From Mytilus trossulus (taxonomy: Eukaryota): 64,000 nt of DNA. This document shows positions 2,975 through 61,257 of the stretch, piece after piece (position 1 is the first letter of the stretch; the number at the start of each line of letters is the position of its first letter). The stretch spans positions 50,325,378 through 50,389,377 of the forward strand of contig NC_086382.1 in the NCBI RefSeq assembly GCF_036588685.1, written 5' to 3'. The translations under genes were made by a program, and so were the position numbers. The notes below the pieces were generated by a model. The model saw only the letters and a program-made list of their open reading frames with translations, searched no databases and was not told the DNA's origin.

Positions 2975-3083
2975 GAACTTAGGCGATATAGCTTCAATGC
3001 TAGGAAACCTAAGACATATGGCTCTAGATATGGGAACTGAGATTTCAGAACAGAATGCACAACTGGATAGAATATCAACTAAG
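2975..3083 (+). CDS. SNAP-25-family Qbc-SNARE, C-terminal SNARE-motif exon ([36 protein letters not shown])
   Basis: Acceptor ccatgttttag and donor aag|gttagt. [19 protein letters not shown] matches the SNAP-25 Qc SNARE core MALDMGNEIDTQNRQIDRI, and the zero-layer Gln is conserved. Confidence 0.7.
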
Positions 3084-3720
3084 GTTAGTGATTTAAACTA
3101 AAATGAATAGATATATTTTCAGTAAGACAGGTCTGTAACAATGTTTCAATGCTGTAATAATTTATCATGTTTAATACTTTTAGTAGAACTTGTGTTTGTG
3201 TTTCACCAAGTTAGGAGATTGTGATATTAGAATACACAGAAATATGCTCTTGTATCTAAGGATTGAGGCTAAGTAGTTTGTTTGAGATGTCAATACTTTT
3301 TTTTGGTAAACTGTGTCAGAAAAATAGGACATTTAGATCTCTAAATCAACATATTTTTGTAACAGGATAGTTTTGTTTTCAAAATATAATACATTATAAA
3401 TGACAACTTTCGAGTTTGATGCATTTCCGTCAAAAAGTCTGGTTTTAGTGAACATCATTTGTGTGTTTAGTGGTATTGTCACTTCCTTTCCAATGTTGAC
3501 GGAGTGGTTGGCAAATTATAATACTATATTGCATGATTTATTCAGAAAACTAAATTCTCATAATTGACAATCAAGCACTGCTGTCATTAGGGAATTGTGA
3601 TTAAGTACTTACATAACAAAAAATATTTCTAGTTTATCCTGCACAATGACAATCACTAAGACGCTTGATATACGTTAATAGTGCAGGGATACAGGCAATC
3701 CCCTCTATATAGTAAATGAC

Positions 3721-5120
3721 ATCTGGAAGATGATGCCTCTGTTGAGGCATTGCTTGGTGTTTGGGCATAGATCCTCCAGGCATCTGGAAGGAGATGTATT
3801 TGTTGAGGCATTGCTTGGTGTTTGGGCATAGATCCTCCAGGCATCTGGAAGGAGATGTCTTTGTTGAGGCATTGCTTGGTGTTTGGGCATAGATCCTCCA
3901 GGCATCTGGAAGGAGATGTCTTTGTTGAGGCATTGCTTGGTGTTTGGGCATAGATCCTCCAGGCATTTGGAAGGAGATGTCTTTGTTGAGGCATTGCTTG
4001 GTGTTTGGGCATAGATCCTCCAGGCATCTAGAAGGAGATGTCTTTGTTGAGGCATTGCTTGGTGTTTGGGCATAGATCCTCCAGGCATCTGGAAGGAGAT
4101 GTCTTTGTTGAGGCATTGCTTGGTGTTTGGGCATAGATCCTCCAGGCATTAAGAAGGAGATGTCTTTGTTGAGGCATTGCTTGGTGTTTGGGCATAGATC
4201 CTCCAGGCATCTGGAAGGAGATGTCTTTGTTGAGGCATTGCTTGGTGTTTGGGCATAGATCCTCCAGGCATTTGGAAGGAGATGTCTTTGTTGAGGCATT
4301 GCTTGGTGTTTGGGCATAGATCCTCCAGGCATCTGGAAGGAGATGTCTTTGTTGAGGCATTGCTTGGTGTTTGGGCAAAGATCCTCCAGGCATTAAGAAG
4401 GAGATGTCTTTGTTGAGGCATTGCTTGGTGTTTGGGCATAGATCCTCCAGGCTTCTGGAAGGAGATGTCTTTGTTGAGGCATTGCTTGGTGTTTGGGCAT
4501 AGATCCTCCAGGCATCTGGAAGGAGATGTCTTTGTTGAGGCATTGCTTGGTGTTTGGGCATAGATCCTCCAGGCATCTGGAAGGAGATGTCTTTGTTGAG
4601 GCATTGCTTGGTGTTTGGGCATAGATCCTCCAGGCATCTAGAAGGAGATGTCTTTGTTGAGGCATTGCTTGGTGTTTGGGCATAGATCCTCCAGGCATTT
4701 GGAAGGAGATGTCTTTGTTGAGGCATTGCTTGGTGTTTGGGCATAGATCCTCCAGGCATCTAGAAGGAGATGTCTTTGTTGAGGCATTGCTTGGTGTTTG
4801 GGCATAGATCCTCCAGGCATCTGGAAGGAGATGTCTTTGTTGAGGCATTGCTTGGTGTTTGGGCATAGATCCTCCAGGCATTAAGAAGGAGATGTCTTTG
4901 TTGAGGCATTGCTTGGTGTTTGGGCATAGATCCTCCAGGCATCTGGAAGGAGATGTCTTTGTTGAGGCATTGCTTGGTGCATGAGCATAGATCCTCCGGC
5001 ATCTGGAAGGTGATGTGTTTGTTGAGGCATTGCTTGGTGCCGGGGCATAGATCCTCCAGGCATCTGGAAGGTGATGTCTTTGTTGAGGCATTGCTTGTTC
5101 CATGGACATTGATCCTCAAG
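3721..5120. repeat. 61-bp minisatellite, ~23 copies (unit ggcatctggaaggagatgtctttgttgaggcattgcttggtgtttgggcatagatcctccag), inside the SNAP-25-like intron
   Basis: Exact 61-bp periodicity across 1.4 kb. The long - strand ORFs (up to 243 aa) repeat every 61 aa, which is 3 x 61 nt read in all three frames, so they are artifacts. Confidence 0.9.
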
Positions 5121-5257
5121 GCACCATTTACCTTGAAAGTGTTCTTCATGAAAAATCTTGTTGTTTTTCACAATGAAATTTCAAAGATAGGAAATTTGAT
5201 GGATAAATAAGAAAGTAAGTTGTGGAGTGAACTGAATTATTTATTATATATTTTCAG

Positions 5258-5338
5258 AGTTTAGTATCTGACGGTCGATTACAAGCAGCTAACAAAAAAG
5301 CTATGAGAATTTTAGCCAATGACTCAAGTGACTCCAGT
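5258..5338 (+). CDS. SNAP-25-family Qbc-SNARE, exon encoding the end of the SNARE motif (SLVSDGRLQAANKKAMRILANDSSDSS)
   Basis: Acceptor tatattttcag, phase 0 continuation, donor agt|gtaagt. Aligns to SNAP-25 [20 protein letters not shown]. Confidence 0.6.
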
Positions 5339-6349
5339 GTAAGTACAGTAAAAAAGTTTTTGTGTTAAAGTCCTCCTTTTCTCAAAGAACACCCAGTGTT
5401 TATACAGTATAATCAGAGCATGTGCAGATAAGATTTAGGCAGGAGGAATCAAATCCATTTAAATTTAGACTTGAGTTTCCTAACAAAGTTGACCTTTAAT
5501 TAATCCCATATATTGATCTCTTAATTAGGGGAATTATAGGACTTTTACCTTAGTATGACTTTGGTATCACATTGACACAGTATGGAACACAATTTGATAG
5601 ATATAGGAAGATATGGTATTTTTGAGAATGAGACAACTCTTTATTCAAGTCACAATTTATAAAAGTAAATCATTATAGGTCAAGGTACAGTCTTCAATAC
5701 AGAGCCTTATTCACACGGAACAGCAAGCTATAAAGGGATCTAAAACACCAATACATCACAGGGGAAATGTTGCTAGGATGTAGCAATCTTGTTAAACTTG
5801 TTGTGCTTATGTTTGTGGAAAAACAGATTTGAAAGTCACTGATTTTTGATTTGCTTACATTTTCTGAAAGGTTCATGTAAAGCGATAATTGCTTGTGTAT
5901 TGTTTTGAAAGTAATATGATTTTAACAAATCATTGGAGAATACAACTCAATCTGAAGAATCAAAACTTGTCAGCTTTACTGAAGGATCATCATATCACAA
6001 AAAGAACAAAACAATGTTTTTTTTTAAAAGTTACTACAGTGAACATTATGTTCTACATTAAAATATACGTTGAGCTTCTTTTTTATAAATTTTCATACTT
6101 TTAAATACTTATCAGTGAATTCATTTAGGCCCCTTGATTCAGTCATACTTTCAACCAGTTTTCAGATTTTTCAGTAATTTTAGTCGAATACAATTGAGAA
6201 TGGAAATGTGTAATATGTCAAAGAGACAACAACCCGTTCAAAGAGTAAAATCTACCCTTTGACCTATCCTCACCAATTACATACCAAAAATTGCATCATA
6301 TAAGGAATTACCTTTGATATAATTATAATTTTTACATTTAATGTTATAG

Positions 6350-12017: not shown

Positions 12018-12656
12018 ATGGAATCTGTCCATGCTGCTGTGAAATCCTACAAAGTAAGCACTATTAGTAATGGGAGAATTGATATGGAAACAGATAGGAA
12101 TAAAGATAGAAATTTCTCATCCTTCCCACCTCTTTCATTTGGATCTGATGAAGAGCAGGGATTTAGACAAAATATAAGGGAGGAAGAAAGTAGAAAACTC
12201 AATCCAAAAAGAATGATCGACCAAAGTAGTAAGGAAGACAGAGGAAGGGAAGATGAAAAGAAAAGGAGAACATTAAATCAAGAAGGGTTGAAAGAGCTGA
12301 TGTGTGAAAGAAAAAGGCAGAATGATGAAGCCGGGAGGAGAGAAGAAATAAGGCAAGAGAAACAAAAACAAATTATTGATCACAGTACTAAGAAAGATAG
12401 AGGAGGGGAAGATGAAAAGCTTTCTGAAAAGAAAAGGAGAACATTAGATCAAGAAGGGTTGGAGAAACAACAGTGTGAAAGGAGAAGACAGGCTGATGAA
12501 GCCAGGTGGAGAGAAGAAATAAGGCAATTGGAACTAGAAAATAAACAGAAACTAGAAGAAAATGAAAGAGAGAGAGAAAAGATAAGAAATGAAAGAAGAG
12601 CTGCTTTCGTTGAAAGAAAAACAAAACGAAATGGTATGAATAAATTAAGAGTATAA
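12018..12656 (+). CDS. Glu/Arg/Lys-rich coiled-coil-type ORF of 212 aa with an internal ~50-aa duplication; product unknown and low complexity
   Basis: A 639-nt ORF in 33% GC DNA with a reasonable start context (gggATGg) and no ORF on the opposite strand. The internal repeat is DQSSKEDRGREDEKKRRTLNQEGLKE...RREEIRQ versus DHSTKKDRGGEDEK..KRRTLDQEGLEK...WREEIRQ. A preceding acceptor-like ttttcag at 11995-12001 means it could instead be an internal or terminal exon. Confidence 0.35.
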   Translation: MESVHAAVKSYKVSTISNGRIDMETDRNKDRNFSSFPPLSFGSDEEQGFRQNIREEESRKLNPKRMIDQSSKEDRGREDEKKRRTLNQEGLKELMCERKRQNDEAGRREEIRQEKQKQIIDHSTKKDRGGEDEKLSEKKRRTLDQEGLEKQQCERRRQADEARWREEIRQLELENKQKLEENEREREKIRNERRAAFVERKTKRNGMNKLRV

Positions 12657-13390
12657 TTTAAGTATTCCAACTGTTTAAAATATCATGAAAATGTCAAATG
12701 GTCAGTTCCTTGTATGTTTTTTAATAAATGAAAGCTGTATTCACCATTGAATGATACATGTAGTTGTATGTGTGACATTTTTATGTCATAGTATATATGA
12801 GAGTATAGAAGGAAACTTTAGAATTTTCAATCAGCCATCACCTTGAAAAAACCTTGGTGGTCAAATTGCAATTGTTTTCCATTCAGAAGTTTAGGCCCTT
12901 AAAGAAATAATTTGTTGTGATTCAAAAATTATTTGCTTAGTTTCAAATGAGTGGTAGATGGTACCAATTGCAACAGATTTTTAAACTGAGGACACCCTTG
13001 CAAAAACAAAATGAGTATAAAGACAGTCTACAAAACTCACAAAAAAGAAAGCAAAAACAAAAATCTTCCTTTTGTGAGGCCATGCAAAAAGATATCTTCT
13101 ATTCTGGTTTCTCTACCTTTTCTTTGTTTTGGGAAGTTACCCTAAAGATTGGGGGTATTTTTGAATGAGTGCTAATAAAATAACAATATGTATTCTATAT
13201 ATATTCAATACAAAAAAAATGCCCTAATTTTTTATCTTTATATAACAGGACCCACAAATATCATTTCAATTGGCCTAAAGCAAAATGTTATACCAACAAC
13301 AACAACAATACTTTATTTTAATGATCACTTTTGAAACCAGTAGTATTGATTGTAAAATTAAGTCCTCTCATTTTATATTGTATATTTTAG

Positions 13391-13792
13391 CTGCACAGTC
13401 AGGCAGGTCACCAGTTTACAGGAGAGCAGAAATACAAGACTTACTTTTGTTGGATGTCACTCCACTGTCGCTTGGTATAGAAACAGTTGATGGTCTCATG
13501 ACACCTGTTATCAAACGTAATACAACAGTTCCAACTAGAAAGAGCCAGACTTTCACTACTTTAGAGGACTATCAGATCAGTGTGTTAATTCAGGTTTATG
13601 AAGGGGAGAGAACTATGGCCAAGAACAATAACTCTCTGGGAACATTTGTTCTAACTGGAATACCGGCTGCACCAAAAGGGGTACCTCAGATTGTTGTCAC
13701 CTTTGACATTGATGCCAATGGTATTTTTACAATTTCTGCTGAAGACAAGCTTACTGGAAAGAGGAATAGCCTCACAATTACTAATGACAAAG
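13391..13792 (+). CDS. Hsp70-family exon encoding the substrate-binding beta-sandwich domain ([37 protein letters not shown]...[32 protein letters not shown]); diverged paralog, partial gene or possible pseudogene
   Basis: Acceptor tatattttag and donor aaag|gtaagg. The translation matches the Hsp70 SBD-beta domain ([41 protein letters not shown]). No nucleotide-binding-domain exons are found upstream in the window. Confidence 0.55.
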
Positions 13793-13802
13793 GTAAGGAT
13801 TG

Positions 13803-14080
13803 TTATGCCCCACCTAAGATAGTTGAGGGGCATTATGTTTCTGATCTGTGTGTCTGTTTGTCCATTTGTTTGTTCGTCTGTCTGTCCCGCTTCAGATTTA
13901 ATTTCTTTTGTCAAGTTGAAGTCCAATCAACTAGAAACTTTGTACACATGTTCCCTATGATATAATATTTCTAATTTAATTCTAATGCCTAATTAGATTT
14001 TTGACCACAATTTAAAGGTCCATGTAGCATAGAAAATGATAGTGCAAGTGGGGCATCCGTGTACTATGAACTTATTCTTG
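13803..14080 (+). mobile_element. Hairpin element family A, copy 2, inserted in the Hsp70 intron
   Basis: 5' ttatgccccacctaagatagttgaggggcat, a (TGTC)n tract, one internal unit, and 3' gtggggcatccgtgtac. It is absent from the paralogous intron downstream of exon B. Confidence 0.6.
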
Positions 14081-14284
14081 TTAATGATTAGTTGACTACA
14101 AATGCCAAAAAATACAGCATTTTCTGTGTGTCTTGCAGCTCTTCATCTTTTTATTATTAGATAATCCTAAAATATCAATTATAACTTGATCATAATAACA
14201 AACGAATTTTTAATAGTGAGGAAATTGGGAATATATTGCAATGAAAATTACTGTTGATGTTTTATTTTTAACTTTGTTCTTTAG

Positions 14285-14818
14285 GTCGTTTGGGGTCAAA
14301 AGAAATAGATAAAATGGTCAATGAAGCAGAGAAATTTAAGGCTGAGGATGAACAACAGAGAAAATGTATTTCCGCAAAGAACGCTTTGAAAGGCTATACA
14401 CTTAACATGGTATCAACAATTGATTTTGACAAACAAGAAGTTTACAGAATCAAAAAAATACAAGACTTACTTTTGTTGGATGTCACTCCACTGTCGCTTG
14501 GTATAGAAACAGTTGATGGTCTCATGACACCTGTTATCAAACGTAATACAACAGTTCCAACTAGAAAGAGCCAGACTTTCACTACTTTAGAGGACTATCA
14601 GATCAGTGTGTTAATTCAGGTTTATGAAGGGGAGAGAACTATGGCCAAGAACAATAACTCTCTGGGAACATTTGTTCTGACTGGATTACCTGCTGCACCA
14701 AAAGGGGTACCTCAGATTGATGTCACCTTTGATATTGATGCCAATGGTATTTTGACAATTTCTGCAGAAGATAAACTTACTGATAAGAGGAATAGCATTA
14801 CAATTTCTAATGAAAAAG
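14285..14818 (+). CDS. Hsp70-family exon. Its first ~50 codons encode the start of the lid helix ([42 protein letters not shown]), fused in frame to a second copy of the SBD-beta domain
   Basis: Acceptor tctttag|gtcg, phase-compatible with exon A (KG|RLGS). 14461-14680 is 100% identical to 13432-13650 and ~95% identical beyond that. Donor aaag|gtaaga. Confidence 0.5.
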
Positions 14819-15009
14819 GTAAGAATTTTTTATTATTAGTGGAGCAAAATTAACAAAAAATACAGCAGTACTGTTTGTTTTGCAGTTCTTCATCTTTTTG
14901 TTAATAAATAATCCTAAAATATCAATTTTAACTCTATCAAAATGATAAAAGAAATTGAATAGTTAGGAAATTCAGAATATATTGCAATGAAAATTACTGC
15001 TGAATATAT

Positions 15010-16246
15010 TTAGCTCACCTGGCTCGAAGGGCCAAGTGAGCTTATGCCATCACTTGGTGTCCGTCGTCGTCCGTCGTCGTCTGTCGTCGTAAACTATTTC
15101 AAGAATCTTCTCCTCTGAAACTACTGGGCCAAATACTTCCAAACTTTAACTCAATGTTCCTTAGGGTATCTAGTTTATAAATATTGTTTATCAGGTCAAG
15201 ATCTATCTGCCCTGAAATTTTCAGATGAATCAGACAACCTGTTGTTGGGTTGCTGCCCCTGAATTGGTAATTTTAAGGAAATTTTGCTGTTTTTGGTTAT
15301 TATCTTGAATATTATTATAGATAAAGATAAACTGTAAACAGCAATAATGTTCAGCAAAGTAAGATTTACAAATAAGTCAATATGACCGAAATGGTCAGTT
15401 GACCCCTTTAGGAGTTATGGCCCTTTATAGTCAATTTTTAACCATTTTTCGTAAATCTTAGTTATCTTTTACAAAAATCTTCTCCTCTGAAACTACTGTG
15501 CCAAATACTTCCAAACTTTTACTGAATGTTCCTTAGGGTATCTAGTTTATAAATTGTATCCGAAGTTTTGATCTATCAACAAACATGGTCGCCATTACTA
15601 AAAATAGAACATAGGGGTCAAATGCAGTTTTTGGCTTATAACTCAAAAACCAAAGCATTTAGAGCAAATCTGACATGGGGTAATATTGTTAATCAGGTCC
15701 AGATCTATTTCAGATGAATCAGACAACCTGTTGTTGGGTTGCTGCCCCTGAATTGATAATTTTAAGGAAATTTTGCTGTTTTTGGTTATTATCTTGAATA
15801 TTATTATAGATAGAGATAAACTTTAAAGTGAGCAATAATGTTCAGCAAAGTAAGTTCTACCAATAAGTCTATCTGATCAAAATTGTCAATTGACCCCTTA
15901 AGGAGTTATTGCCCTTTAAAGACTTTTTTCACAATTTGTTCATCATGTTGACTTACTTTAAAAAATCTTCTCCTTTGAAACTGCTGTATCAACTTCAGCC
16001 AAACTTAGGCCAGATGAGTTTCATAGTATCTAGTAAAAATTTTATATTTTATTTCCTTGTATGTCAAGAAACATAGCTTCTATGGCTAAAATAGAACATC
16101 TGAGAAAATGTTTTTTTTTTTGCCTTATGAAGAAAATAGGACGATCCAAAAAACATTTAAATAAATTGAAAAGCCAAATTAATCATTGTTGAGAGATTTA
16201 ACCAAAAGAATTAAGGTGAGCGATTCAGGCTCTTGAGAGCCTCTTG
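15010..16246 (+). mobile_element. Family-2 non-autonomous Helitron/Helentron-like element. It has a 5' hairpin agctcacctggctcgaagggccaagtgagc, a (CGTC)n microsatellite, ~370-bp internal tandem units, and a 3' ggtgagcg...ggctcttgagagcctcttg+TT
   Basis: The paralogous intron at 14190-14284 lacks the insert. The element is inserted at a T-run with no TSD. The same family occurs at 21584-26799, 36835-38098, 42871-44501 and 48784-49584. Confidence 0.65.
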
Positions 16247-16272
16247 TTTTATTTTGAACTTTGTTCTTTAAG

Positions 16273-16484
16273 GTCGTTTGGGGTCAAAAGAAATAGATGA
16301 AATGGTCACTGAAGCATACAAATATAAGGTTGAGGCTAAACAACAGGAAAAATGTATTTCTTCAAAGAATTCTTTGAAAGGTTGTATGCTTAACATGGTA
16401 TCAGCAATTGAATTTGGAAAACGCAAAGGTAAATTGAAAATGGATTGCAATGTAAAAAGAATGCTACAATGTGCAAATGGATGA
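16273..16484 (+). CDS. Hsp70-family exon, second copy of the lid-start segment ([42 protein letters not shown]...), reaching a stop at 16482-16484. An alternative GT donor lies at 16429
   Basis: Acceptor ttctttaag|gtcg, the same phase as exon B. An AATAAA signal at ~16745 is consistent with a 3' end. Confidence 0.4.
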
Positions 16485-17180
16485 CTGTGCTACAAGACTG
16501 AGTGATATTGATAAAATGGAAAATATATACATAGTGCTGAGCTTTTATGGAACAATGACTTTCAGTCAACTATTGGAGCTTGAAGTGAAGTCATCAGGGG
16601 ATATGCCAAGTTACTCATAGTAGCACTTCAAAAAAGATCACAGAAAAATGAGATCATTGTCAGCCTTCTAAATGTCCCTCGCTGCAGTACAGTATGAGTG
16701 AATGGCTTGGCCTCAATCTGGTGGTGTTTCTAAATATTTTTGTATCAATAAAAGTGTTTGTTGACTGCTGAAAAATCAATTAAAATTATATTTAGCAATT
16801 TCTTTCTCTGTTTTTAATATGGACTCAATACCTACTACAAAAGTAAAGGTACTGATAAAACCAAAAGGGACAAAAGAAAAGCCAAACCCAGTAGTTTTGC
16901 TATAATTGTAGTCAACTGAGAAAATACATCAGTAATGAAATTTGCCCTCTTATATAACAACCAAGGGAACTAACTCCCATATTATTTACTACAATGGAAA
17001 TATCCTATTAATTAAAGTTACAATTGTTATGAGCTGATTATATATAAGTAACTTATAATGCATCATTTTACTAAAATTCTGCTTTATTTATCATTTCACT
17101 AACTTATAACTTGTAAACATTTTCTATTCTCTTATGTTGAATATTTTTAAATATTGAATTTGAATTCTGATAAACCAGTT

Positions 17181-18274
17181 TAGATTGAATGTCCTGTCTA
17201 TAAGGGTGTCCATCCATTTCAGATTGAATGTCCTGTCTAAGAGGGTGTCCATCCATTTCAAATTGAATGTCCTGTCTAAGAGGGTGTCCATCCATTTAAG
17301 ATTGAATGTCCTGTCTAAGAGGGTGAACATCCATTTCAGATTGAATGTCCTGTCTAAGAGGGTGTCCATCCATTTCAGATTGAATGTCCTGTCTATGAGG
17401 GTGTCCATCCATTTCAGATTGAATGTCCTGTCTAAGAGGGTGTCAATCCATTTAAGATTGAATGTCCTGTCTAAGAGGGTGTCCATCCATTTAAGATTGA
17501 ATGTCCTGTCTAAGAGGGTGTCCATCCATTTAAGATTGAATGTCCTGTCTAAGAGGGTGTCCATCCATTTAAGATTGAATGTCCTGTCTAAGAGGGTGAA
17601 CATCCATTTAAGATTGAATGTCCTGTCTAAGAGGGTGAACATCCATTTAAGATTGAATGTCCTGTCTAAGAGGGTGTCCATCCATTTCAGATTGAATGTC
17701 CTGTCTAAGAGGGTGTCCATCCATTTCAGATTGAATGTCCTGTCTAAGAGGGTGTCCATCCATTTCAGATTGAATGTCCTGTCTAAGAGGGTGTCCATCC
17801 ATTTAAGATTGAATGTCCTGTCTAAGAGGGTGTCCATCCATTTAAGATTGAATGTCCTGTCTAAGAGGGTGAACATCCATTTCAGATTGAATGTCCTGTC
17901 TAAGAGGGTGAACATCCATTTAAGATTGAATGTCCTGTCTATGAGGGTGTCCATCCATTTCAGATTGAATGTCCTGTCTAAGAGGGTGTCCATCCATTTT
18001 AGATTGAATGTCCTGTCTAAGAGGGTGTCCATCCATTTAAGATTGAATGTCCTGTATAAGAGGGTGTCCATCCATTTAAGATTGAATGTCCTGTCTAAGA
18101 GGGTAAACATCCATTTAAGATTGAATGTCCTGTCTATGAGGGTGTCCATCCATTTCAGATTGAATGTCCTGTCTAAGAGGGTGAACATCCATTTAAGATT
18201 GAATGTCCTGTCTATGAGGGTGTCCATCAATTTCAGATTGAATGTCCTGTCTATGAGGGTGTCCATCCATTTCT
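17181..18274. repeat. 39-bp minisatellite, ~28 copies (agattgaatgtcctgtctaagagggtgtccatccatttc), with two unit subtypes (gtgtccatccatttcag and gtgaacatccatttaag)
   Basis: Exact 39-nt periodicity (13 codons) explains the 392-aa (-) and 412-aa (+) ORFs, which are almost certainly non-coding. Confidence 0.9.
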
Positions 18275-19821: not shown

Positions 19822-19926
19822 AGAAACCAGTACTGCTGCAAACATATGCTGCAAGATGTTCATCTTTGCTAGAAAGTGAAGAAAGTGAAAGTGATGTATG
19901 CATGGATTTTAATTTATTTGAAGATG
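19822..19926 (+). CDS. Acidic exon (KPVLLQTYAARCSSLLESEESESDVCMDFNLFEDG), a paralog of the exon at 20644-20769
   Basis: Acceptor ctctttacag, donor gatg|gtaaat, and a length of 105 nt (symmetric phase-1 exon). It is homologous to the next exon (ESE.SE.D....F.LF.DG). Confidence 0.4.
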
Positions 19927-20643: not shown

Positions 20644-20769
20644 AACCAGCTCTGTTGGACATAATACCAGTTAAAGAAAGTTCTAAGGCAATTCGAACTC
20701 CTAAGGTTGCATCTTGTAAAGAAAGTGAAAGTGAGGATGATGACTTAGGTTTCGGCTTATTTGATGATG
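20644..20769 (+). CDS. Acidic exon (EPALLDIIPVKESSKAIRTPKVASCKESESEDDDLGFGLFDDG), second member of a tandem exon pair
   Basis: Acceptor ctcattgtag, donor gatg|gtaaga, and a length of 126 nt in the same phase as the exon at 19822-19926. The motif DDDLGFGLFDD is reminiscent of ribosomal P-protein C-termini, but the context differs. Confidence 0.4.
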
Positions 20770-31899: not shown

Positions 31900-32640
31900 C
31901 CACTATGTTTCGTCAGTTACTTTGTTCCAGCGGAATTTTTCAAGTAGTTATTTCGTTCCAATGGAACTTTCCAACTAGTTGTTTTATTTCAAGTGAGTGG
32001 AAAAGTTCTGGAAAAAAAGAAGGTAGTTGAAAAGTCCTGGAACAATGTAGCTATTTGAATAGTGAAGCCTAACAAACCCTAACCCTAACAAAAAGGAATT
32101 TTGTGACTAGTTGATAAGATCCGTTTGTCTTTTGTGGCTTGTATCTTTGTTCCCCTTTGAAAAGGTTCAAAGACAATATGTTGCGCTTTTACTTTGCATC
32201 AATTCTCCAAATGGAACTTTGTGACTGGTTGATAAGTTCCATTGGAACTTTTGGGCTAGTTTGTTAGTTCTGGTTTTGACTTTTTTGACAAAGAGGAACT
32301 TTGTGGCTAGTTGATAAGTTCCTTTTGACTTTTGTAATCAGTAGTATCTTGTTTTCCCTTTGAAAAGGTTCAAATATGATATTTTGCACTTTTACTTTGC
32401 ATCAATTCTCCATATGGAACTTTCTGCCTGGTTGATGCTAGTTTGTTAGTTCTGGTTTTGACTAATTTGGCAAAAAGGAACTTTCTAACTAGTCACTTTG
32501 TTCACTGTGGAACTTTTAAACCAGAGGAAGAACACAGTAACTTCTTAATAAGTTCCTCCATATCTTTTCGGCTAATTAGTTCTTTCTGCCCGGTACTTTA
32601 TAACTTCGGAACAAAAGAGCATTTACATATGTACAATTTT
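31900..32640. repeat. Tandem repeat of a ~185-bp unit (…ggaactttgtgactagttgataagttcc…), ~3.5 copies, immediately upstream of the S/P/Q-rich exon; it includes a (CCCTAA)2 motif at ~32075
   Basis: Repeated blocks at 32090-32280, 32280-32470 and 32470-32640. Confidence 0.6.
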
Positions 32641-32648
32641 TCTTTTAG

Positions 32649-33606
32649 GAACCATAGTAAAAGATGATTTTGTATCAAAACCAACTCAACTAGAATCAGA
32701 TATGATACACATAGGTGACACAGACATCGCTCCAGCCCGTAAAAAAGTGCATGGAGGCATAGCTTGCATGCCACAGTCAACACCTAGCTACAAAAAACAT
32801 GGAGGTAAACAGTCATCCTTAGTCCCATCTAGCAGGAAGACAGATGAAGTCACAGGGTATTCATCATCAGTAAATCAGAGAAGTCAAGCAATTCCACCTC
32901 AGAGTATGCAACCTCAGGCAATGCAAGCATCTTCACCCAAAATGATGCAACCAGCATCACCTCAGACACAGCGAGCAACGTTACCCAAAATAATGCAACC
33001 CACATCACCTCAGAGACGCCAAGATTTTTTTACCCGAAGTATGCAACCAGCATCACCTCAGGTAATGCAAGCATCATCACCCCAAAGTATACAGTCGCCT
33101 GCTCCTGCAATAATGGTTTCAGAAGCAAGTCCTGAAAAGCATAAACCAATTTCATTATCAAAGTATAATGAACACCCAAAAAAGTCTGGCTGTATGGGAT
33201 CACCTGAGGGTAATATATGTATTGGTGACTCAGCACCTCTAAGACAACAAACAACAAGTTCATCAGAAAGTCAAAGCCAGCCAAACACGGCTTCACCTCA
33301 ATTAGCAGGAAGTTCAAGATTTAGAGGAGGGGTGACACCACCTCCACTCTCACAGGTGCCTCAAATATCAAAGAGACCACTCCCAACACCCTCTCCAGCA
33401 GCTGTTAAAACAAATACCAGTAATAAAACACCATCTTCCTTTCTAACAATACCAGAGCAACAGAGATCCAAAATAACACCAACCCAATCACATCTACAGG
33501 CTGAGGAGATACCAGGAGCACCAAGGCCTAGAGCTCCTGCCAGACGGATGTCTGGGTCATTAGGTTTGCAGTCCAAATCATGGGGTTCCCCAGCCTCTGC
33601 ACTGCA
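32649..33606 (+). CDS. Large exon encoding a Ser/Pro/Gln-rich, probably disordered segment (…SPQ…MQPASPQ… repeats); product unknown
   Basis: Acceptor tcttttag at 32641-32648. The 958-nt frame is open from the acceptor. The listed ORF is 32702-33610, but the stop TAA overlaps a consensus donor ca|gtaagt, and the frame continues into the next exon. Confidence 0.5.
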
Positions 33607-34184
33607 GTAAGTAATGAAAGGAGTTTTCTTTTTCTACTGAAGCCATATATCCAGTATCAGTTAATTTTTCTCAGAGACAAAGTAAATTTATGCATCTTTA
33701 AACAATTGTTTAGCACTTAACTTATTATAACAAAAAATTTTAATTATCATTTTTTATTCATTTCTTTTTTTGCTATATTGGATCTGTAAAGAGTTGTTGT
33801 AAATTGTGCATATTGTTCAAAAACTGTCATCTAACCTTGACTATATTTTCATTATTTATTTTGATGATAAAGTAATTTTTTCATGTACTGCAGGTTCATT
33901 TATATTTGTGCATACCAATTTTCAATTTTCAAGGATTGGGTAAAACTTACAATTTTATTTTCGTGGTAAAGCCCGAATCTGCATACAAGTTGATTTTCTT
34001 TGAAAATTTAAATTTTAAATTCACCCTTACGGGCCTTACCCACAAAATCTACAAATAACAATGAATCCACAGTACTATAAGTTATTAATGAAAATTACGC
34101 AGGTGAAACATTTCAAAGTTTCCATGTTCTGCTTGTGTATACCTATCACTCATAAGTTTGACATGTATTGTATATATCTTGCAG

Positions 34185-34284
34185 GAACAGGTCCTTTGAT
34201 GAAGGTTATTTAAGTGATGCAAGAAGATTATCTGTTGACTTGACTCGTGAAATGTTAGCGCAGACCAAAGAACCATCACTTATG
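34185..34284 (+). CDS. Small exon (Q)NRSFDEGYLSDARRLSVDLTREMLAQTKEPSLM of the same gene
   Basis: Acceptor tcttgcag and donor atg|gtatga. The exon is phase-compatible with the previous exon, since ca+g gives Gln. Confidence 0.45.
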
Positions 34285-34677
34285 GTATGATGTCTGGGTT
34301 AAATATATTCTTAAGTTATGGAATAACATCAAACGTTTTGAGGATTGATTTCCAACGCATGCCTGTATGGGGTTGTATGTTCACTTTCTAATATAGGTTA
34401 TTACTGTATATGCATGAGAGAGAGTTCTAGACATATAAAGCCAGTAGAATCTTTTTTCCTTTCTTATTTAAACATAAAAAGTAGGTGTTTGACATAAAGT
34501 TTCCTATTGAAATTTGCATATTTTTTTTTAATTTTTGGGTCATGGTAGTCTTTGATTAAGTTAAGGTTCAATCAATGCAAAAACATTCCAGTTTTAGATA
34601 TAGGTTAGAAAATTTGATTCTTTGGAACATTAACCTAAATAGTGAAATAAAAATATGTTTACTGGCTATACTTACAG

Positions 34678-34785
34678 GAGGAAACAGAAGATGTCTCAGA
34701 ACTTTTACATGAATTGGAGTTGGAGGATGATAACAAAAGTCTGGATGATATTGTGTATATTGATGAAATAGAAGAAGTAAAACCA
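34678..34785 (+). CDS. Small acidic exon EETEDVSELLHELELEDDNKSLDDIVYIDEIEEVKP of the same gene
   Basis: Acceptor cttacag, donor cca|gtaagt, phase 0 to 0. Downstream exons were not found; SINEs and hairpin elements follow. Confidence 0.45.
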
Positions 34786-35321
34786 GTAAGTTTATTCAAC
34801 ATTTTGAAAATTATCATAACTCTTTATGAGGTCCCCTTGCCAGAAATTGGATATTTGGACCTTAATTCCATGTATTATAGAATTGAGAATGGAAATGGGG
34901 AATGTGTGAAAGAGACAACAACCCCATCAAAGTGCTGAAAACAGCCAAAGGCAACCAATGGATCTTCAATCCCGCACGGGAGGCAGTCTCTAGCTGGCCC
35001 CAAAACAAAAATGTGTACTAGTTAAGTGAAAATGGACGTCATTCTACACTCCAAAACATATAAATAAACTAATATTAAAAAACATACAAGACTGACAAAG
35101 GCCAATGGCTCATGACTTGGAACACACGCAAAAATGTGGCAGGGTTACCGTGTTAAGTGTGATCTTACCCCTCAACCTATACCTCTAGCTAATGTAGAAA
35201 AAAAAACACAGCAATACACACAGTATGTCAGTTTCATGAAAAGGAGATGCAGAGTGAATGTCAATTAACCCAAAAATGAGTATCCAGTGGCAAATATTAC
35301 ATGTATATAAAGAGCCCCGGT

Positions 35322-47569: not shown

Positions 47570-47608
47570 AGTAAAAAGAAAAAGATGAAGAAAAAGGCTG
47601 TCTTGGAT
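47570..47608 (+). CDS. Putative first coding exon of an unknown gene (possible start ATG at 47585: MKKKAVLD)
   Basis: Acceptor-like ttttcctag and a perfect donor gat|gtaagt, phase 0. Confidence 0.25.
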
Positions 47609-49717: not shown

Positions 49718-49922
49718 GTGCAAAGTTTTTATAAGACAGCTGGCAAAAAGAAGTCAACAAGTTACTTTTCATCAATTGGGGATAGTACTAGATATGTAGT
49801 GGATAAAGTCAAATCAGTTGGAGATTACATCTTTAAGGACAGGGGTGTTAGAGAGGCAGATATAGCTTACTACAGAGATGATAGTGTTGGTGATATTTTA
49901 TCTTACCATTCTGCATCAACAG
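49718..49922 (+). CDS. Exon 3 (VQSFYKTAGKKKSTSYFSSIGDSTRYVVDKVKSVGDYIFKDRGVREADIAYYRDDSVGDILSYHSAST-G)
   Basis: Acceptor ttttgattcag, a 205-nt open frame, and donor g|gtatat. Confidence 0.5.
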
Positions 49923-50625
49923 GTATATACCCTATTTTTCATTAGTTGCAGCATTTGTGAGGGGGGATAGGAGGGGTCATGATCCCGAAATCCCAAGCTT
50001 AAACATGAAATCCTGAGGTCCTGAAACATCCAATCCCGGAGTCCAGATAAAGGTCCTATCCCCCCTCATTTGTTTTATGCAATATTGTCCGATTCTCTTT
50101 GCACTGATTTTGAATTAGTGTTGTCTTTTTGAAAACAAATATATATGGTTTTTTTCTTTTTTGTGGTTGATTAATTGTTTCTTAACATTAAAATTAAGAA
50201 CAAAATTATTTGACTAAAATTTTCAAATACCTGTACATGTAATATTTTATATTATGATAAGATGCCATATAAAAAAGAAGATGAGGTATGATTGCCAATG
50301 AGACAACTATCCACAAAAGACCAAAATTACACAGACATTAACAACTATGGTCACCGTACGGCCTTCAACAATGAGCAAAGCCCATATAATCATTATATCT
50401 GTAATATAGAATAAGGTCCTGTACAAAATTGATAGGTATTAAGATGGGTTCAGCTAAGTTTTCTTGCTACCTTCATCACAGTATTATCATAGTTAATGAC
50501 TTCTATATATATCTTTCAATGTCAAAATATCAAAACATTATTCAAGCTACTTTCATCGGGAGTTGTCTCATGAACAATCATACCTACATATTCTGATTTA
50601 TGATAATTTGATTTGAATTTTTCAG

Positions 50626-50750
50626 GTCAAGTTGAACCAACAAAGAGCCTTAGTGACTTTGGTATAGGATCAATAATTAAACCGATCAGGACACAACATT
50701 GTTTAGTGGACAAACATAATCTGGATAAACTGTTCGAATTACAAGGGGAG
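50626..50750 (+). CDS. Exon 4 (GQVEPTKSLSDFGIGSIIKPIRTQHCLVDKHNLDKLFELQGE)
   Basis: Acceptor aatttttcag. The phase-1 start matches the exon 3 end. Donor gag|gtaatt. Confidence 0.5.
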
Positions 50751-51195
50751 GTAATTTGTTAGAAAAGTCATAATTTAATTTAAAAATAATTTAAAATCAG
50801 TAAGTAGGTGTTACCATGATAGTTAGTCACTGAAAGAATTTCAACTAATGACAGCAATTTAGGCACACTCCTTTCAGCATCAAAATGTCTGCAACATCAA
50901 CAATTTATAAAGTTTGTGACTGGTTTGTTGGAGAGAAGTTCTTTATTATAAGTCGATACTTTATGGTATGCAAATGTATCATCAGTGGCACATTTTAATC
51001 CCATGGAGATCAATTGGCTATGGTTGCCTCTATAAAAAAGGCTCTCATGGGTCAGATCCTTAGCTTGCTTCATATGAAATTTTTGTCAGACTTTTTCTCA
51101 GGAACTACAATTCGGAGCTTTAAGAAAGTTGTAAGCAAGCTATACCACGAAAAATAGTATTTCATCCCTAACAATGTGATAATATATAATTACAG

Positions 51196-51295
51196 GATGG
51201 TAGCTGGTGTTTGACAGAAAGGTTGTGCAATCTACTGGGAATTGATTATAATGTCTGTATGAATATTCTTAAAGAGGCTGGCATTAAGTCTTTAG
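51196..51295 (+). CDS. Exon 5 (DGSWCLTERLCNLLGIDYNVCMNILKEAGIKSL)
   Basis: Acceptor taattacag and donor g|gtaggt. Confidence 0.5.
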
Positions 51296-52140
51296 GTAGG
51301 TGTTTCATATAAAAAAGAAGATGTGGTATGATTGCCAATGAGACAACTGTCCACAAGAGACCAAATGACACAGACAGTAACAACTATAGGCCTTCAATAT
51401 GTTTATATTACAGTGTAACCTGTGTAATTCTACACACTAGGGGACCAGAAAAAAAATGTTGGATTGAGCAGCGTGTCAGAATACTCTGGTGTTGGATAAG
51501 ACAGGTTACACTGTACTTACATTAAGTATGAACTTAGGAACATTATTTCAAACAGATAAAACCCGTTGAGTAGTCTTTTGAATATTAAGTTTCAATTAAT
51601 ACTAAAGAAACATTTATTTTCATGAGATCAAAATTTTGTGGTTTTGTCTCTAAGTAAGATTTCATGAGGATTTAATTTCATGGGTTCCATTAAATGGAAG
51701 TGATATTTTATGAAGGTTAATATTTTAAATAAAATAAACAAAATTATATCCTCCATGAAAATTCTGTTTTTACACTAATTAAGGAAAAGGTTCAATTTTG
51801 GGTTTTTACCCTGATATTTTATACATTTCATGCTTTAGTCATTTAGCAGAATCAGGATTTGATTTTTAAACTAGCATTAAAGTTTGCAGTAATAAAATGC
51901 AAATGAATATGGTTAAGTCGCAAACTAATGCAAAATCTTGACTATAAGTATTTGACGTGGCAAAAGATACCAAAGAAACATTTCAACTCACAAAGTAAAA
52001 AATTAATTTGACAATGCCGTGGAAAAAAAAGTAAAAAGGACAAATAACAGTATACAAAACATAGAACATATGGAAATTAGAGTGATGACATAAATTGAAA
52101 CAATCAAATTTTAATTAAAGGTATCAATATTCTATTACAG

Positions 52141-52469
52141 CATTAAAAGTACAGGATGAGATTACGACATTACTGGCAACCTGTATTGCCCTGCTGGTTA
52201 TTATACAATTGGAGTCTCCAGACTGGGTTCCAAGTCATGTTAAAGGCAATAACTTTTGGCAAAAAGAGCTGACAAAATGGCTGTCAGAAAGTACTGAGGG
52301 TGGTAGACAGCAAGTTGACGATGAAAATTTTCCTAAACATAGTCGTATGATAAAAACTGTCAATTTTTATCAGCAGAAAGAGGAAGAGCATAAATTGACA
52401 TCAAGTATGCTGGAGTTAGGTCACTCCTGGGGTGAGGTAGCAGCCAAGATGTTAGGTGTTGCACAGTAA
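52141..52469 (+). CDS. Terminal coding exon (…ALKVQDEITTLLATCIALLVIIQLESPDWVPSHVKGNNFWQKELTKWLSE…SWGEVAAKMLGVAQ*), product unknown
   Basis: Acceptor ttctattacag. The phase-1 start matches exon 5. A 329-nt ORF ends at TAA 52467-52469. The last ~50 nt of coding sequence are tandemly triplicated downstream (52417-52565). Confidence 0.5.
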
Positions 52470-53094: not shown

Positions 53095-54539
53095 GTCGTC
53101 GTCGTCGTCGACGTCGTCGTCCGAATACTTTTAGTTTTCGCACTCTAACTTTAGTAAAAGTGAATAGAAATCTATGAAATTTTAACACAAGGTTTATGAC
53201 CATAAAAGGAAGCCTGGTATTGATTTTGGGAGTTTTGGTCCCAACATTTTAGGAATTAGGGGCCAAAAAGGGCCCAAATAAGCAATTTCTTGGTTTTCGC
53301 ACTATAACTTTAGTTTAAGTTAATAGAAATCTATGAAATTTCGACACAAGGTTGATGACCACAAAAGAAAGGTTGGGATTGATTTTGGGAGTTTTGGTTT
53401 CAACAGTTTAGGAATTAGGTGCCAAAAAAGGGCCCAAATAAGCATTATTCTTAGTTTTCGCACAATAACTTTAGTTAAAGTAAATAGAAATCAATGAAAT
53501 TTAAACACAATGTTTATGGCCACATAAGGAAGGTTGGTATTGATTTTGGGAGTTTTGGTCCCAACAGTTAAGGAAAAAGGGGCCCAAAGGGTCCAAAATT
53601 AAACTTTGTTTGATTTCATCAAAATTGAATAATTGGGGTTCTTTAATATGCCGAATCTAACTGTGTATGTAGGTTCTTAATTTTTGGTCCAGTTTTAAAA
53701 TTGGTCTAAATTAAAGTGCAAAGGGTCCAAAATTAAACTAAGTTTGATTTTAACAAAAATTAAATTCTTGGGCCTCTTTGATATGCTGAATCTAAACATG
53801 TACTTAGATTTTTGATTATGGGCCCAGTTTTCAAGTTGGTCCAAATCAGGATCTAAAATTATTATATTAAGTATTGTGCAATAGCAAGTCTTTTCAATTG
53901 CGCACAGTATTGTGCAATGGCAAGAAATATCTAATTTCACAATATTGTGAAATTGCAAATTTTTTTTTAATTAAGAGTTATCTTTCTTTGTCCAGTATAG
54001 TAAGCAAGAAATATCTGCAAGAATTTTTTTTAATTGGAGTTATCTTTCTTTGTCCAGAATCAACTTAAATCTTTGTTATATACAATATACAATGTATATT
54101 CACTTTTTACTACCAACTGATAAATTTAAATAATCTTTACCATTCAGTGATAACAAGCAGTTTTTTTACATCTTAATATTTTATGATGTATTTAAATGAG
54201 TAGTAATTGTTGCAAACTCCATTAGAATATTTTAATTGAAGTTAGTTTTGGAATAAGGGAAAGGGGGATGTGATTAAAAAATTGGGTTCAATTTTTCTCA
54301 TTTGAAATTTCATAAATAAAAAGAAAATTTCTTCAAACATTTTTTTGAGAGGATTAATATTCAACAGCATAGTGAATTGCTCTTAGAGAAAACAAAAATT
54401 TTAAGTTCATTTGAATACATTCATTCTGTGTCAGAAACCTATGCTGTGTCAACTATTTAATCACAATCCAAATTTAGAGCGGAATCCAGCTTGAATGTTG
54501 TGTCAATACTTGCCCCAACCGTTCAGGGTTCAACCTCTT
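53019..54539 (+). mobile_element. Family-1 Helentron-like copy with a long (CGT)n tract (~75 nt), two satellites and a 60-bp repeat block. Its 3' terminus is missing, replaced by the junction to the next copy
   Basis: 5' tatacgaccgcaaattttg at 53019. At 54535 the sequence ggttcaacctct runs directly into (tcg)n of the following copy, skipping the 3' hairpin and 5' terminus. Confidence 0.6.
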
Positions 54540-56288
54540 CGTCGTCGTCGTCGTCGTCAGTCGTCGTCGTCGTCCGAATACTTTTAGTTTTCGCACTCTA
54601 ACTTTAGTAAAAGTGAATAGAAATCTATGAAATTTTAACACAAGGTTTATGACCATAAAAGGAAGCCTGGTATTGATTTTGGGAGTTTTGGTCCCAACAT
54701 TTTAGGAATTAGGGGCCAAAAAGGGCCCAAATAAGCAATTTCTTGGTTTTCGCACTATAACTTTAGTTTAAGTTAATAGAAATCTATGAAATTTCGACAC
54801 AAGGTTGATGACCACAAAAGAAAGGTTGGGATTGATTTTGGGAGTTTTGGTTTCAACAGTTTAGGAATTAGGGGCCAAAAAAGGGCCCAAATAAGCATTA
54901 TTCTTAGTTTTCGCACAATAACTTTAGTTAAAGTAAATAGAAATCAATGAAATTTAAACACAATGTTTATGGCCACATAAGGAAGGTTGGTATTGATTTT
55001 GGGAGTTTTGGTCCCAACAGTTAAGGAAAAAGGGGCCCAAAGGGTCCAAAATTAAACTTTGTTTGATTTCATCAAAATTGAATAATTGGGGTTCTTTAAT
55101 ATGCCGAATCTAACTGTGTATGTAGGTTCTTAATTTTTGGTCCCATTTTCAAATTGGTCTACATTAAGGTCCAAAGGGTCCAAAATTAAACTTAGTTTGA
55201 TTTTAACAAAAATTGAAACCTTGGGGTTCTTTGATATGCTGAATCTAAAAATGTACTTAGATTTTTGATTATTGGCCCAGTTTTCAAGTTGGCCCAAATC
55301 GAGGTCCAAAATTAAACATAGTTTGATTTCATCAAAAATTGAATAATTGGGGTTCTTTGATATGCCAAATCTAACTGTGTATGTAGATTCTTAATTTTTG
55401 GTCCAGTTTTAAAATTGGTCTAAATTAAAGTGCAAAGGGTCCAAAATTAAACTAAGTTTGATTTTAACAAAAATTAAATTCTTGGGCCTCTTTGATATGC
55501 TGAATCTAAACATGTACTTAGATTTTTGATTATGGGCCCAGTTTTCAAGTTGGTCCAAATCAGGATCTAAAATTATTATATTAAGTATTGTGCAATAGCA
55601 AGTCTTTTCAATTGCGCACAGTATTGTGCAATGGCAAGAAATATCTAATTTCACAATATTGTGAAATTGCAAATTTTTTTTTAATTAAGAGTTATCTTTC
55701 TTTGTCCAGTATAGTAAGCAAGAAATATCTGCAAGAATTTTTTTTAATTGGAGTTATCTTTCTTTGTCCAGAATCAACTTAAATCTTTGTTATATACAAT
55801 ATACAATGTATATTCACTTTTTACTACCAACTGATAAATTTAAATAATCTTTACCATTCAGTGATAACAAGCAGTTTTTTTACATCTTAATATTTTATGA
55901 TGTATTTAAATGAGTAGTAATTGTTGCAAACTCCATTAGAATATTTTAATTGAAGTTAGTTTTGGAATAAGGGAAAGGGGGATGTGATTAAAAAATTGGG
56001 TTCAATTTTTCTCATTTGAAATTTCATAAAGAAAAAGAAAATTTCTTCAAACATTTTTTTGAGAGGATTAATATTCAACAGCATAGTGAATTGCTCTTAG
56101 AGAAAACAAAAATTTTAAGTTCATTTGAATACATTCATTCTGTGTCAGAAACCTATGCTGTGTCAACTATTTAATCACAATCCAAATTTAGAGCGGAATC
56201 CAGCTTGAATGTTGTGTCAATACTTGCCCCAACCGTTCAGGGTTCAACCTCTGCGGTCGTATAAAGCTACGCCCTGCGGAGCATCTGG
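54540..56288 (+). mobile_element. Family-1 Helentron-like copy, near-identical to 53100-54539, with an intact 3' end (...ctgcggtcgtataaagctacgccctgcggagcatctgg+tt)
   Basis: Identical internal ORFs (53695-53958 equals 55409-55672, and 53874-54068 equals 55588-55782) show a very recent tandem duplication. Confidence 0.6.
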
Positions 56289-60097: not shown

Positions 60098-61257
60098 GGC
60101 GCCGAATGGGACTCTTATGGTTTTGTACAAAATTCAATTTTGTCATAACAAAATCATTTTTGTCTTACAAAACTATGTGCTACAGACTTGTTTTGTGAGA
60201 ACTTCAATTTTGTGATGACAAAATTCATTTGTGTAGACAAAATTCATTTTTGTCATTACAAAATTCATTTTTGTAGACAAAATTCATATTTGTCATGACA
60301 AAAGTCAATTTTGTCTAAAAGGTATGCAAATATAAACATATTTGCATACAAAACTGACTTTTGTTACCTGATATGGAAATTAAATCACAAAAGTCAATTG
60401 TGTGAGGTAAGATTCAATTTTGTTAGACAAAATTAACTTTTGTGAGACAAAATTCAATTTTGTTAATTTTGATGAGACAAAAGTGAATTTTGTCAATTTT
60501 GTTGAGACAAAAGTCAATTTTGTGACGACAAAATTCATTTTTGTGACGACAAAATTCAATTTTGTAACAACAAAATTGACTTTTATGAGACAAAATTGAC
60601 TTTCGTGAGACAAAAATCAATTTTGTTGAGACAAAATTCAATTTTGTCAATTTTGTTGAGACAAAATTCAATTTTGTTGAGACAAAATTCAATTTTGTTG
60701 AGACAAAAGTCAATTTTGTCACACATTGGTCAATTTTGTCTCACATTGGTCAATTTTGTCTCACAAAAGTCAATTTTGTCAATTTTGTTGAGACAAAAGT
60801 CAATTTTGTCAATTTTGTTGAGTCAAAAGTCAATTTTGTGTAACAAAAGTCAATTTTGTGTAACAAAAGTTAATTTTGTGTAACAAAAGTCAATTTTGTG
60901 TAACAAAAGTCAATTTTGTGTAACAAAAGTCAATTTTGTGTAACAAAAGTCGATTTTGTATGCAAATTAGTTCACAGAAACCAAACTTAACTAATTTGAA
61001 TACAAAATTCACTTTTGTCGCCCAATTTTCAAATTAGGTAACAAAATTCAATTCTGTGTAACAAAAATGAATTTTGTCATGACAAAAGTGACTTTTGTCC
61101 GCTGATAGATAATTTTGTATGACAAAATTTTAAATTAGTAGTATGATACAAATTTTGTTAAACTGAACTCATTTTTGTTGAACAAAAGTCTCTTTTGTCC
61201 GTACAAAATTGAATTTTGAGTACAAAACCACAAGAGTCCCATTCGGCGCCCCGTACG
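60098..61257. mobile_element. Foldback-like non-autonomous element with ~42-bp TIRs (tgtacggggcgccgaatgggactcttatggttttgtac), filled with 20-24-bp tandem repeats (gacaaaagtcaattttgt…)
   Basis: The left TIR at 60098-60140 is inverted relative to 61215-61257. The internal ORFs (60380-60883) are repeat artifacts. Confidence 0.65.

Follow-up and report, generated by a model that had tools for sequence, protein, structure and literature searches.

Exon structure and Hsp70 content of the locus

We analyzed a 64,000-nt stretch of Mytilus trossulus genomic DNA (positions 50,325,378 to 50,389,377 of contig NC_086382.1, hereafter the window, numbered from its first letter), in which a locus at 13391-16484 on the + strand encodes parts of a heat shock protein of the Hsp70 family. 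By reading the sequence and rebuilding the exons, we obtained three exons, A, B and C, which are separated by GT-AG introns and joined in phase 1 at every junction (Table 1). The spliced frame contains 381 open codons and ends at the TGA at 16482-16484 without an internal stop or frameshift. Its product matches the Pfam HSP70 family (PF00012, E=1.1e-114) in two stretches. Each of these units aligns with residues ~386-562 of HSPA8/HSPA2 (390-562 on HSPA2) and comprises the interdomain linker, the β part of the substrate-binding domain (SBD-β) and lid helices A and B. Exon A codes for the last residues next to the nucleotide-binding (ATPase) domain, or NBD (A|AQSG), the linker DLLLLD and the first copy of SBD-β. 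An ATG at 13285, within the retained intron, is in frame with exon A.

This structure bears out the initial annotation of the stretch in its main features, namely three exons spliced in matching phase and two consecutive Hsp70 substrate-binding units, but corrects it in two respects. Each unit had been credited with the first lid helix alone and in fact holds both helices A and B. Furthermore, a donor site had been placed at 16428. This is probably not an exon end because the Hsp70 homology continues past it in the same frame (GKLKMDCNVKRMLQC vs. GKINDEDKQKILDKC) up to 16472.

Truncated ends of the fragment

We found no NBD anywhere in the window on either strand. In a tblastn search with human HSPA8, only the SBD pieces matched, and phmmer --max with HSPA8 against 3558 stop-to-stop six-frame pieces returned the three exons only, with the next best hit at E=22. 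A Pfam scan of most + strand open reading frame (ORF) pieces of at least 38 amino acids in 1-32.7 kb, from which a few repeat-derived pieces were omitted, gave no domain. The absence of ATPase-domain exons, pointed out initially for the 13 kb upstream, thus extends to the entire 64 kb. NBD exons located even further upstream, a scenario that would have made the locus an ordinary Hsp70 gene, are very unlikely because a SNAP-25-like gene ends upstream of the locus on the same strand (Table 1).

At the 5' end, the homology begins exactly at the acceptor 13390|13391, inside the codon equivalent to Ala374 of HSPA8 and before the VQAAIL motif. In four prokaryote-style ORF calls from eukaryotic genomic contigs (P0021, P0112, P0113 and P0060), the hsc70 homology starts at the same point after intron-like junk, and hence this intron position is shared with other eukaryotic hsc70 genes. 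The introns at codons 374 and 508, both of phase 1, would correspond to the exon 5/6 and 7/8 boundaries of human HSPA8.

At the 3' end, the homology stops inside the lid exon at ~16472, which corresponds to canonical residue ~578, and the TGA follows at 16482. Unit 2 is devoid of the last ~70 residues including the EEVD motif, and unit 1 stops in helix B. Downstream of the stop codon, neither the distal lid nor EEVD was found in any frame. Matches past the stop, such as ‘KC....WLGLN’ (E=17-31) and a frame-2 stretch (E=0.15-12), were at chance level, and a 31-nt ‘intron’ or a frameshift that would lengthen the ORF was dropped as unsupported. We also looked on both sides of the fragment for terminal inverted repeats, which would have indicated capture by a transposon, with no convincing result. 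Directly 3' of the fragment lies a satellite of 28 copies of a 39-nt unit (17175-18272, 94% identity), which contains long spurious ORFs on both strands.

Both GT-AG introns have been kept, at positions that are typical of hsc70 genes. This points to a copy made at the DNA level, and not to a retrocopy or processed pseudogene. It looks like an unprocessed partial duplicate, in which the parental exon-intron structure is kept and truncated at the ancestral acceptor on the 5' side and inside the lid exon on the 3' side. Of the parts of a functional Hsp70, the linker and SBD-β are present twice, and the NBD, the complete lid and EEVD are absent. As the NBD is missing, an ATP-driven substrate cycle is impossible, and the interdomain linkers that remain lack a docking partner.

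Probable internal tandem duplication and gene conversion

The two units are related by a repeat with a period of 1026 nt (13414 to 14440), of which 534 nt are coding, so that the junction is in frame. The chance of an in-frame junction is one in three. The junction is located at 14439/14440 inside exon B (...DFDKQE|VYRIKK). The in-frame fusion of the second unit within one exon, as described in the initial annotation, is thus real, although the junction lies one codon later than stated there. At this point, the dinucleotide AG is found both where the lid segment finishes (..GAAG; ..AAAG|gtaaat in copy 2) and where the SBD segment sets in (CCAG|TTTACAG in copy 1). A microhomology of 2 nt is usual for tandem duplications mediated by replication or end joining. 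One 1026-nt period delimits the homology between the units exactly on both sides, which favors one local duplication over a fusion of two neighboring genes.

A more detailed comparison of the copies by self-BLAST (Table 1) showed that they are not uniformly similar. The figure of 95-100% identity given for them earlier is valid for SBD-β only (95.7%), whereas the identity is lower in the lid (84-87%) and in the intron remnants (85-88%). Likewise, the two introns had been thought to differ solely by transposon insertions. Both insertions are real, and both have copies elsewhere in the window, but the intron remnants themselves are 87.6% identical and differ by 3-4 small indels in ~190 nt.

Within SBD-β, a tract of 223 nt is completely identical between the copies, at all synonymous sites as well, whereas the divergence amounts to 11-16% in its flanks and to 12% in the introns. 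This tract is best explained by gene conversion, since a run of 223 nt without even a synonymous change is not credible at a neutral divergence of 12% unless the copies were homogenized. An identical stretch of 220 nt, and gene conversion as its possible cause, had been proposed from the first reading of the sequence, and the tract of identity between clearly diverged flanks agrees with both.

In total, the copies differ at 45 of the 531 aligned coding nucleotides, with no indels. The ratio of nonsynonymous to synonymous rates (dN/dS, ω) between them is 0.65 overall, which is not significantly smaller than 1, and it varies along the unit. The first 36 nt by the junction carry 6 differences (ω=0.74), the next 234 nt, which hold the identical run, 3 differences (ω=0.16), the 111 nt of the 3' part of SBD-β 12 differences (ω=0.29), and the 150 nt of the lid 24 differences, 19.5 of them nonsynonymous and 4.5 synonymous (ω=1.03). 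The lid appears to evolve neutrally, with ω about 1. Outside the 223-nt tract, the copies differ about as much as the introns do (12-16%).

Divergence from canonical Hsp70s and database relatives

We compared both units with a set of 120 canonical cytosolic Hsp70 sequences, in which conservation reaches 97% or more at 108 columns. Of these invariant columns, 18 of 99 are changed in unit 1 and 21 of 97 in unit 2, whereas the canonical sequences themselves have a median of 0 such changes and never more than 6. The loop and arch motifs of the peptide pocket are altered (ETAGGVMT to ETVDGLMT and TYSDNQPGV to TLEDYQISV), and PPAPRG has become PAAPKG.

Among 5.8 billion proteins, the best identity to unit 1 was 69%, and all such matches were generic Hsc70s. 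Degenerate-pattern scans of metagenome contigs with two lineage-specific peptides gave 0 matches, and neither of the window ORFs 13285-13965 and 12018-12656 had an exact match on record in the contig index. The searched protein database does include relatives diverged by ~9-15% at the DNA level. The two other window ORFs used as queries both had homologues in the genomic run SRR29152238, and a spliced contig of run SRR13891783 gave the neighboring PARP4-like gene at ~91% nucleotide identity. Because ORFs of the relatives were recovered from the same database, an orthologous or expressed tandem-SBD protein would probably have shown up, and that none did speaks mildly against a conserved, expressed gene.

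The fragment resembles Hsc70/HSPA8 in its linker DLLLLD, SBD-β and lid helices A and B, which are 65-69% identical to the canonical sequence, and in the intron before VQAAIL, which is common to other eukaryotic hsc70 genes. It differs from it by the lack of the ATPase domain, distal lid and EEVD, by the doubled SBD and by the replacement of 18-21 invariant residues.

HSPA13/STCH is an Hsp70 relative that consists of an NBD only. To our knowledge, the natural truncated or atypical Hsp70s keep the NBD, and we know of no characterized natural example that is SBD-only and doubled. A literature search for natural Hsp70s that lack the NBD found none. Plant Hsp70T proteins lack the C-terminal motif (PMC10687569), and Hsp70-12/13/14 are also atypical Hsp70s (PMC12692333). 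Like HSPA13, they are missing a part of the Hsp70 architecture, but the locus described here is the reverse case, as it holds the SBD alone, and twice.

Origin of the fragment

These observations are in good agreement with an unprocessed fragment of an hsc70-type gene that would have undergone an in-frame internal tandem duplication, and later gene conversion and intronic repeat insertions, and that is probably non-functional. Of the two readings put forward in the initial annotation, a decaying partial duplicate is thus better supported than a novel tandem-SBD gene: there is no NBD and another gene ends upstream on the same strand, the lid is truncated without EEVD and its ω is neutral, invariant residues are replaced, and the databases yielded neither a close relative nor a protein derived from a transcript. 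The locus is most probably not a working chaperone gene.

We infer the following order of events. An intron-bearing gene of the cytosolic hsc70 type would have been copied at the DNA level from the intron before codon 374 to the middle of the lid (~578). With one break in an intron at the 5' end and the other in an exon at the 3' end, the copy would have lost the ATPase domain, the C-terminal lid helices and EEVD. A segment that now spans 1026 bp (~720-750 bp prior to the transposon insertion), with one end slightly within exon A and the other halfway along the lid exon, would then have been duplicated head-to-tail at the AG microhomology. As 534 nt of this segment are coding, lid helix B would have been joined in frame to the linker and SBD-β by chance. 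The two copies would subsequently have diverged by ~12-16%, each intron copy may have gained its repeat insertion, and 223 nt of SBD-β would have been homogenized by gene conversion.

In bivalves, HSP70 families expand by tandem duplication, and the Pacific oyster has 113 such genes (PMC11268181). Unprocessed partial duplicates are to be expected in families that grow in this way. The locus is similar to unprocessed HSP70 pseudogenes and fragments of bivalves in its retained introns, truncation at both ends, repeat-rich intergenic setting and, apparently, partly near-neutral evolution. It differs from them by the in-frame internal duplication followed by gene conversion.

A number of observations weigh against this explanation. 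The frame of 381 codons is intact, with no stop or frameshift, and all splice sites of exons A, B and C are at least as good as the transcript-supported sites within the same window. The diverged coding sequence (308 nt) is free of indels, compared with 3-4 in the ~190 nt of intron, and both repeat insertions landed in introns. The ω of the 3' part of SBD-β is low, although it is calculated from just 12 differences. The changes in unit 1 are graded by column conservation: 18% of the columns that are at least 97% conserved are changed, 42% of those conserved at 80-97%, 55% at 60-80% and 86% below 60%. The replacements in this unit are also slightly more conservative than random single-nucleotide ones (mean BLOSUM62 score of +0.15 vs. 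-0.30). About one third of the residues have been replaced while the frame acquired neither a stop nor a frameshift. Most of the divergence from canonical Hsp70 must therefore have taken place under coding constraint, be it in this locus itself or in a divergent parent paralogue that the databases do not contain. As regards the parent, neither a parent gene nor an orthologue of unit 1 with identity above 69% was present among the 5.8 billion proteins.

The points in favor of a maintained frame (no stops, no coding indels, intronic insertions) are post hoc and involve small numbers, and their weight is modest. In particular, a stop-free frame is weak evidence, as it survived 45 random substitutions in simulations with P=0.20-0.24.

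As a relic, the locus is a small example of fragment evolution, in which a partial duplication with a break in an intron, a microhomology duplication, intronic transposons and a conversion tract can be seen side by side. It also calls for caution in automated counts of HSP70 family members, as the fragment scores very high in Pfam.

Alternative explanations

A functional, expressed gene for an NBD-less or chimeric protein with two tandem SBDs is an unlikely alternative. Such a protein might function as a peptide binder or holdase that needs no ATP, or as a decoy for Hsp70 clients and co-chaperones. The intact ORF, the canonical splice sites and the AATAAA hexamer downstream are all compatible with it, as are the absence of indels from the diverged coding parts and the confinement of repeat insertions to introns. 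Isolated Hsp70 SBDs are stable and have been crystallized or solved by nuclear magnetic resonance (4po2, 1ckr and 5xi9). These recombinant proteins cover the same segment as each unit and show that the SBD folds without the NBD. By homology, an SBD fold is likewise predicted for the units here, and it would fit a relic as well as a functional gene. However, they have the canonical sequence, and some of them have a complete lid, whereas here the pocket motifs are altered and the lids truncated. The arch and loop changes, the 18-21 substituted invariant positions and a shortened lid, with which the pocket cannot latch normally, argue against a working binder, as does the lid ω of 1.03. The best database identity stayed at 69%, even though the database holds a spliced PARP4-like transcript contig of a relative. 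Nor is there a recognizable promoter element such as a heat-shock element: none was found, apart from a single chance-level palindrome inside the repeat in intron 2. If the locus were transcribed and translated, the doubled SBD-only derivative of Hsp70 could be an ATP-independent client binder or a competitor of Hsp70.

Translation of such a product could start at the ATG at 13285 or in an upstream exon (12018-12633) spliced to exon A. The latter would give a protein of ~587 amino acids with a charged N-terminal region ahead of the two SBDs. The sole candidate for a 5' exon is the orphan ORF upstream of exon A (Table 1), and it would provide the only concrete route to a chimeric protein. A donor-like sequence of this ORF, AATG|gtatga at 12633|12634, is of phase 1, and splicing from it to exon A would keep the frame (G+CT, Ala). 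A phase match of this kind is expected by chance in ~1/3 of cases. The only relative of the orphan ORF in a HMMER search of 1.84 billion representative proteins was P0121 (178 residues), which is encoded on a genomic contig (L001) of a related species (SRR29152238) and not on a transcript. Compared with P0121, the orphan ORF holds an in-frame internal duplication of 159 nt. The ORF is open in both species, and the donor is conserved in L001, with the similarity decaying with indels right after it. These features are in line with expression, but the ω between the orphan ORF and P0121 is 1.05. The orphan ORF contains no Pfam domain, and no database protein joins it to Hsp70 parts. The last 108 nt of L001, past the equivalent of window position 12786, had no match in the window.

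The more specific version of this idea, a young expressed chimera composed of a lineage-specific charged exon (12018-12633) and the Hsp70-derived exons, would be an ATP-independent protein with two diverged SBDs. It is improbable. If true, the chimeric tandem-SBD protein would represent an Hsp70-family architecture not described so far.

In another scenario, two adjacent full-length Hsp70 paralogues were fused by a deletion from the lid exon of the first to the SBD exon of the second, and the first gene lost its NBD in another rearrangement. Bivalves commonly have tandem Hsp70 arrays (PMC11268181), and a divergence of 12-16% without stops or indels would be expected if both copies had been functional. 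However, this requires two independent rearrangements vs. one duplication, and the homology of the units is bounded exactly by one 1026-nt period with the shared AG. In addition, the lid shows no purifying selection (ω about 1), and the intron copies match each other as closely as the exon copies do. We therefore give this scenario little chance.

A full-length Hsp70 gene of the ordinary kind, with internally duplicated exons and with NBD exons that precede the window, is highly unlikely. Upstream exons must once have been present, given the genuine ancestral acceptor of exon A, but there is no NBD similarity in the 13.4 kb upstream or elsewhere in the window. The same-strand SNAP-25-like exons would place the NBD exons beyond or within a different gene, and the lid is cut short, with no EEVD. 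A falsely duplicated segment in the assembly, which can produce head-to-tail copies and a 223-nt identity, is scarcely credible given the 45 coding differences, the different intronic repeat insertions and the unique sequence on both sides. The duplicated, probably non-functional hsc70-type fragment hence remains the explanation that we prefer.

Table 1. Positions of the features of the Hsp70-like locus and its surroundings in the window.
Feature	Positions	Strand	Description
Exon A	13391-13792	+	acceptor ttttag|CT, phase 1; donor AAAG|gtaagg, phase 1
Intron 1	13793-14284	+	phase 1; splits Gly of NDK-G-RL
Exon B	14285-14818	+	acceptor ctttag|GTCG; donor AAAG|gtaaga
Exon B, 5' part	14285-14439	+	lid helices A-B, copy 1; ends ...DFDKQE
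Exon B, 3' part	14440-14818	+	linker and SBD-β, copy 2
Intron 2	14819-16272	+	phase 1
Exon C	16273-16484	+	acceptor ctttaag|GTCG; lid copy 2 and in-frame read-through to TGA 16482-16484
AATAAA hexamer	16747-16752	+	candidate polyadenylation signal, 263 nt past stop codon
Identical tract, copy 1	13430-13652	+	223 nt, 100% identical to 14456-14678
Identical tract, copy 2	14456-14678	+	223 nt, 100% identical to 13430-13652
SBD-β repeat	13430-13801 vs. 14456-14827		95.7% identity, self-BLAST
Intron tail repeat	14106-14257 vs. 14854-15003		84.9% identity, self-BLAST
Intron end and lid repeat	14258-14428 vs. 16245-16416		87.2% identity, self-BLAST
Repeat insertion, intron 1	~13802-14105		78% identical copies at 1384-1851
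Composite repeat insertion (1.2 kb), intron 2	~15004-16244		copies at 21.6, 25.4-26.6, 36.8-37.9, 42.9-44.4 and 48.8-49.3 kb
Orphan charged ORF, 212 aa	12018-12656	+	735 nt upstream of exon A
SNAP-25-like t-SNARE exon	2976-3095	+	59% identical to human SNAP-25 residues 149-185, E=1.6e-9
SNAP-25-like next exon	5258-5341	+	encodes ...RLQAANKKAMRIL..., ...SDGRLQAANKKAMRILANDSSDSS
PARP4-like exons	32576-33607, 34185-34282, 34670-34789, 47570-47608, 49747-49923, 50623-50751, 51194-51295, 52139-52462	+	spliced transcript contig

Neighboring genes and repeats

The Hsp70 fragment sits in repeat-rich DNA between the SNAP-25-like gene upstream and the PARP4-like gene downstream, all three on the + strand. 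The earlier exons of the SNAP-25-like gene must lie before the start of the window. The intron between its two exons is filled by a satellite of 23 copies of a 61-nt unit (3720-5123). The PARP4-like exons were mapped with a spliced Logan transcript contig (L002) of a related species (SRR13891783, ~91% nucleotide identity). They encode the C-terminal part of the protein, which corresponds to Pfam PF26156 (PARP4_MVP-ID) and spans 32.6-52.5 kb. No PARP, VIT or VWA exons were detected upstream of this part within the window.

The Rfam search identified no RNA family in the window, and the Pfam search of ten other long window ORFs gave nothing above threshold. Two short ORFs on the + strand (19872-19920 and 20724-20765) have acidic tails like the C-terminus of ribosomal P proteins (ESEESESDVCMDFNLFED and SESEDDDLGFGLFDD). 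Their Pfam match to Ribosomal_60s (E=0.009) is below threshold, and they may be P-protein-like exons or fragments.

A composite repeat of ~159- and 135-nt tandem units occurs at 22.1-24.5, 28.5-29.1, 41.9-42.6, 53.1-53.8 and 54.6-55.6 kb. Its copies at 53.1-53.9 and 54.6-55.6 kb are near-identical and give rise to identical ORFs of 91 amino acids (53698-53970 and 55412-55684). Short-period tandem arrays are present at 60387-60959 (20-nt units) and 63296-63625 (21-nt units).

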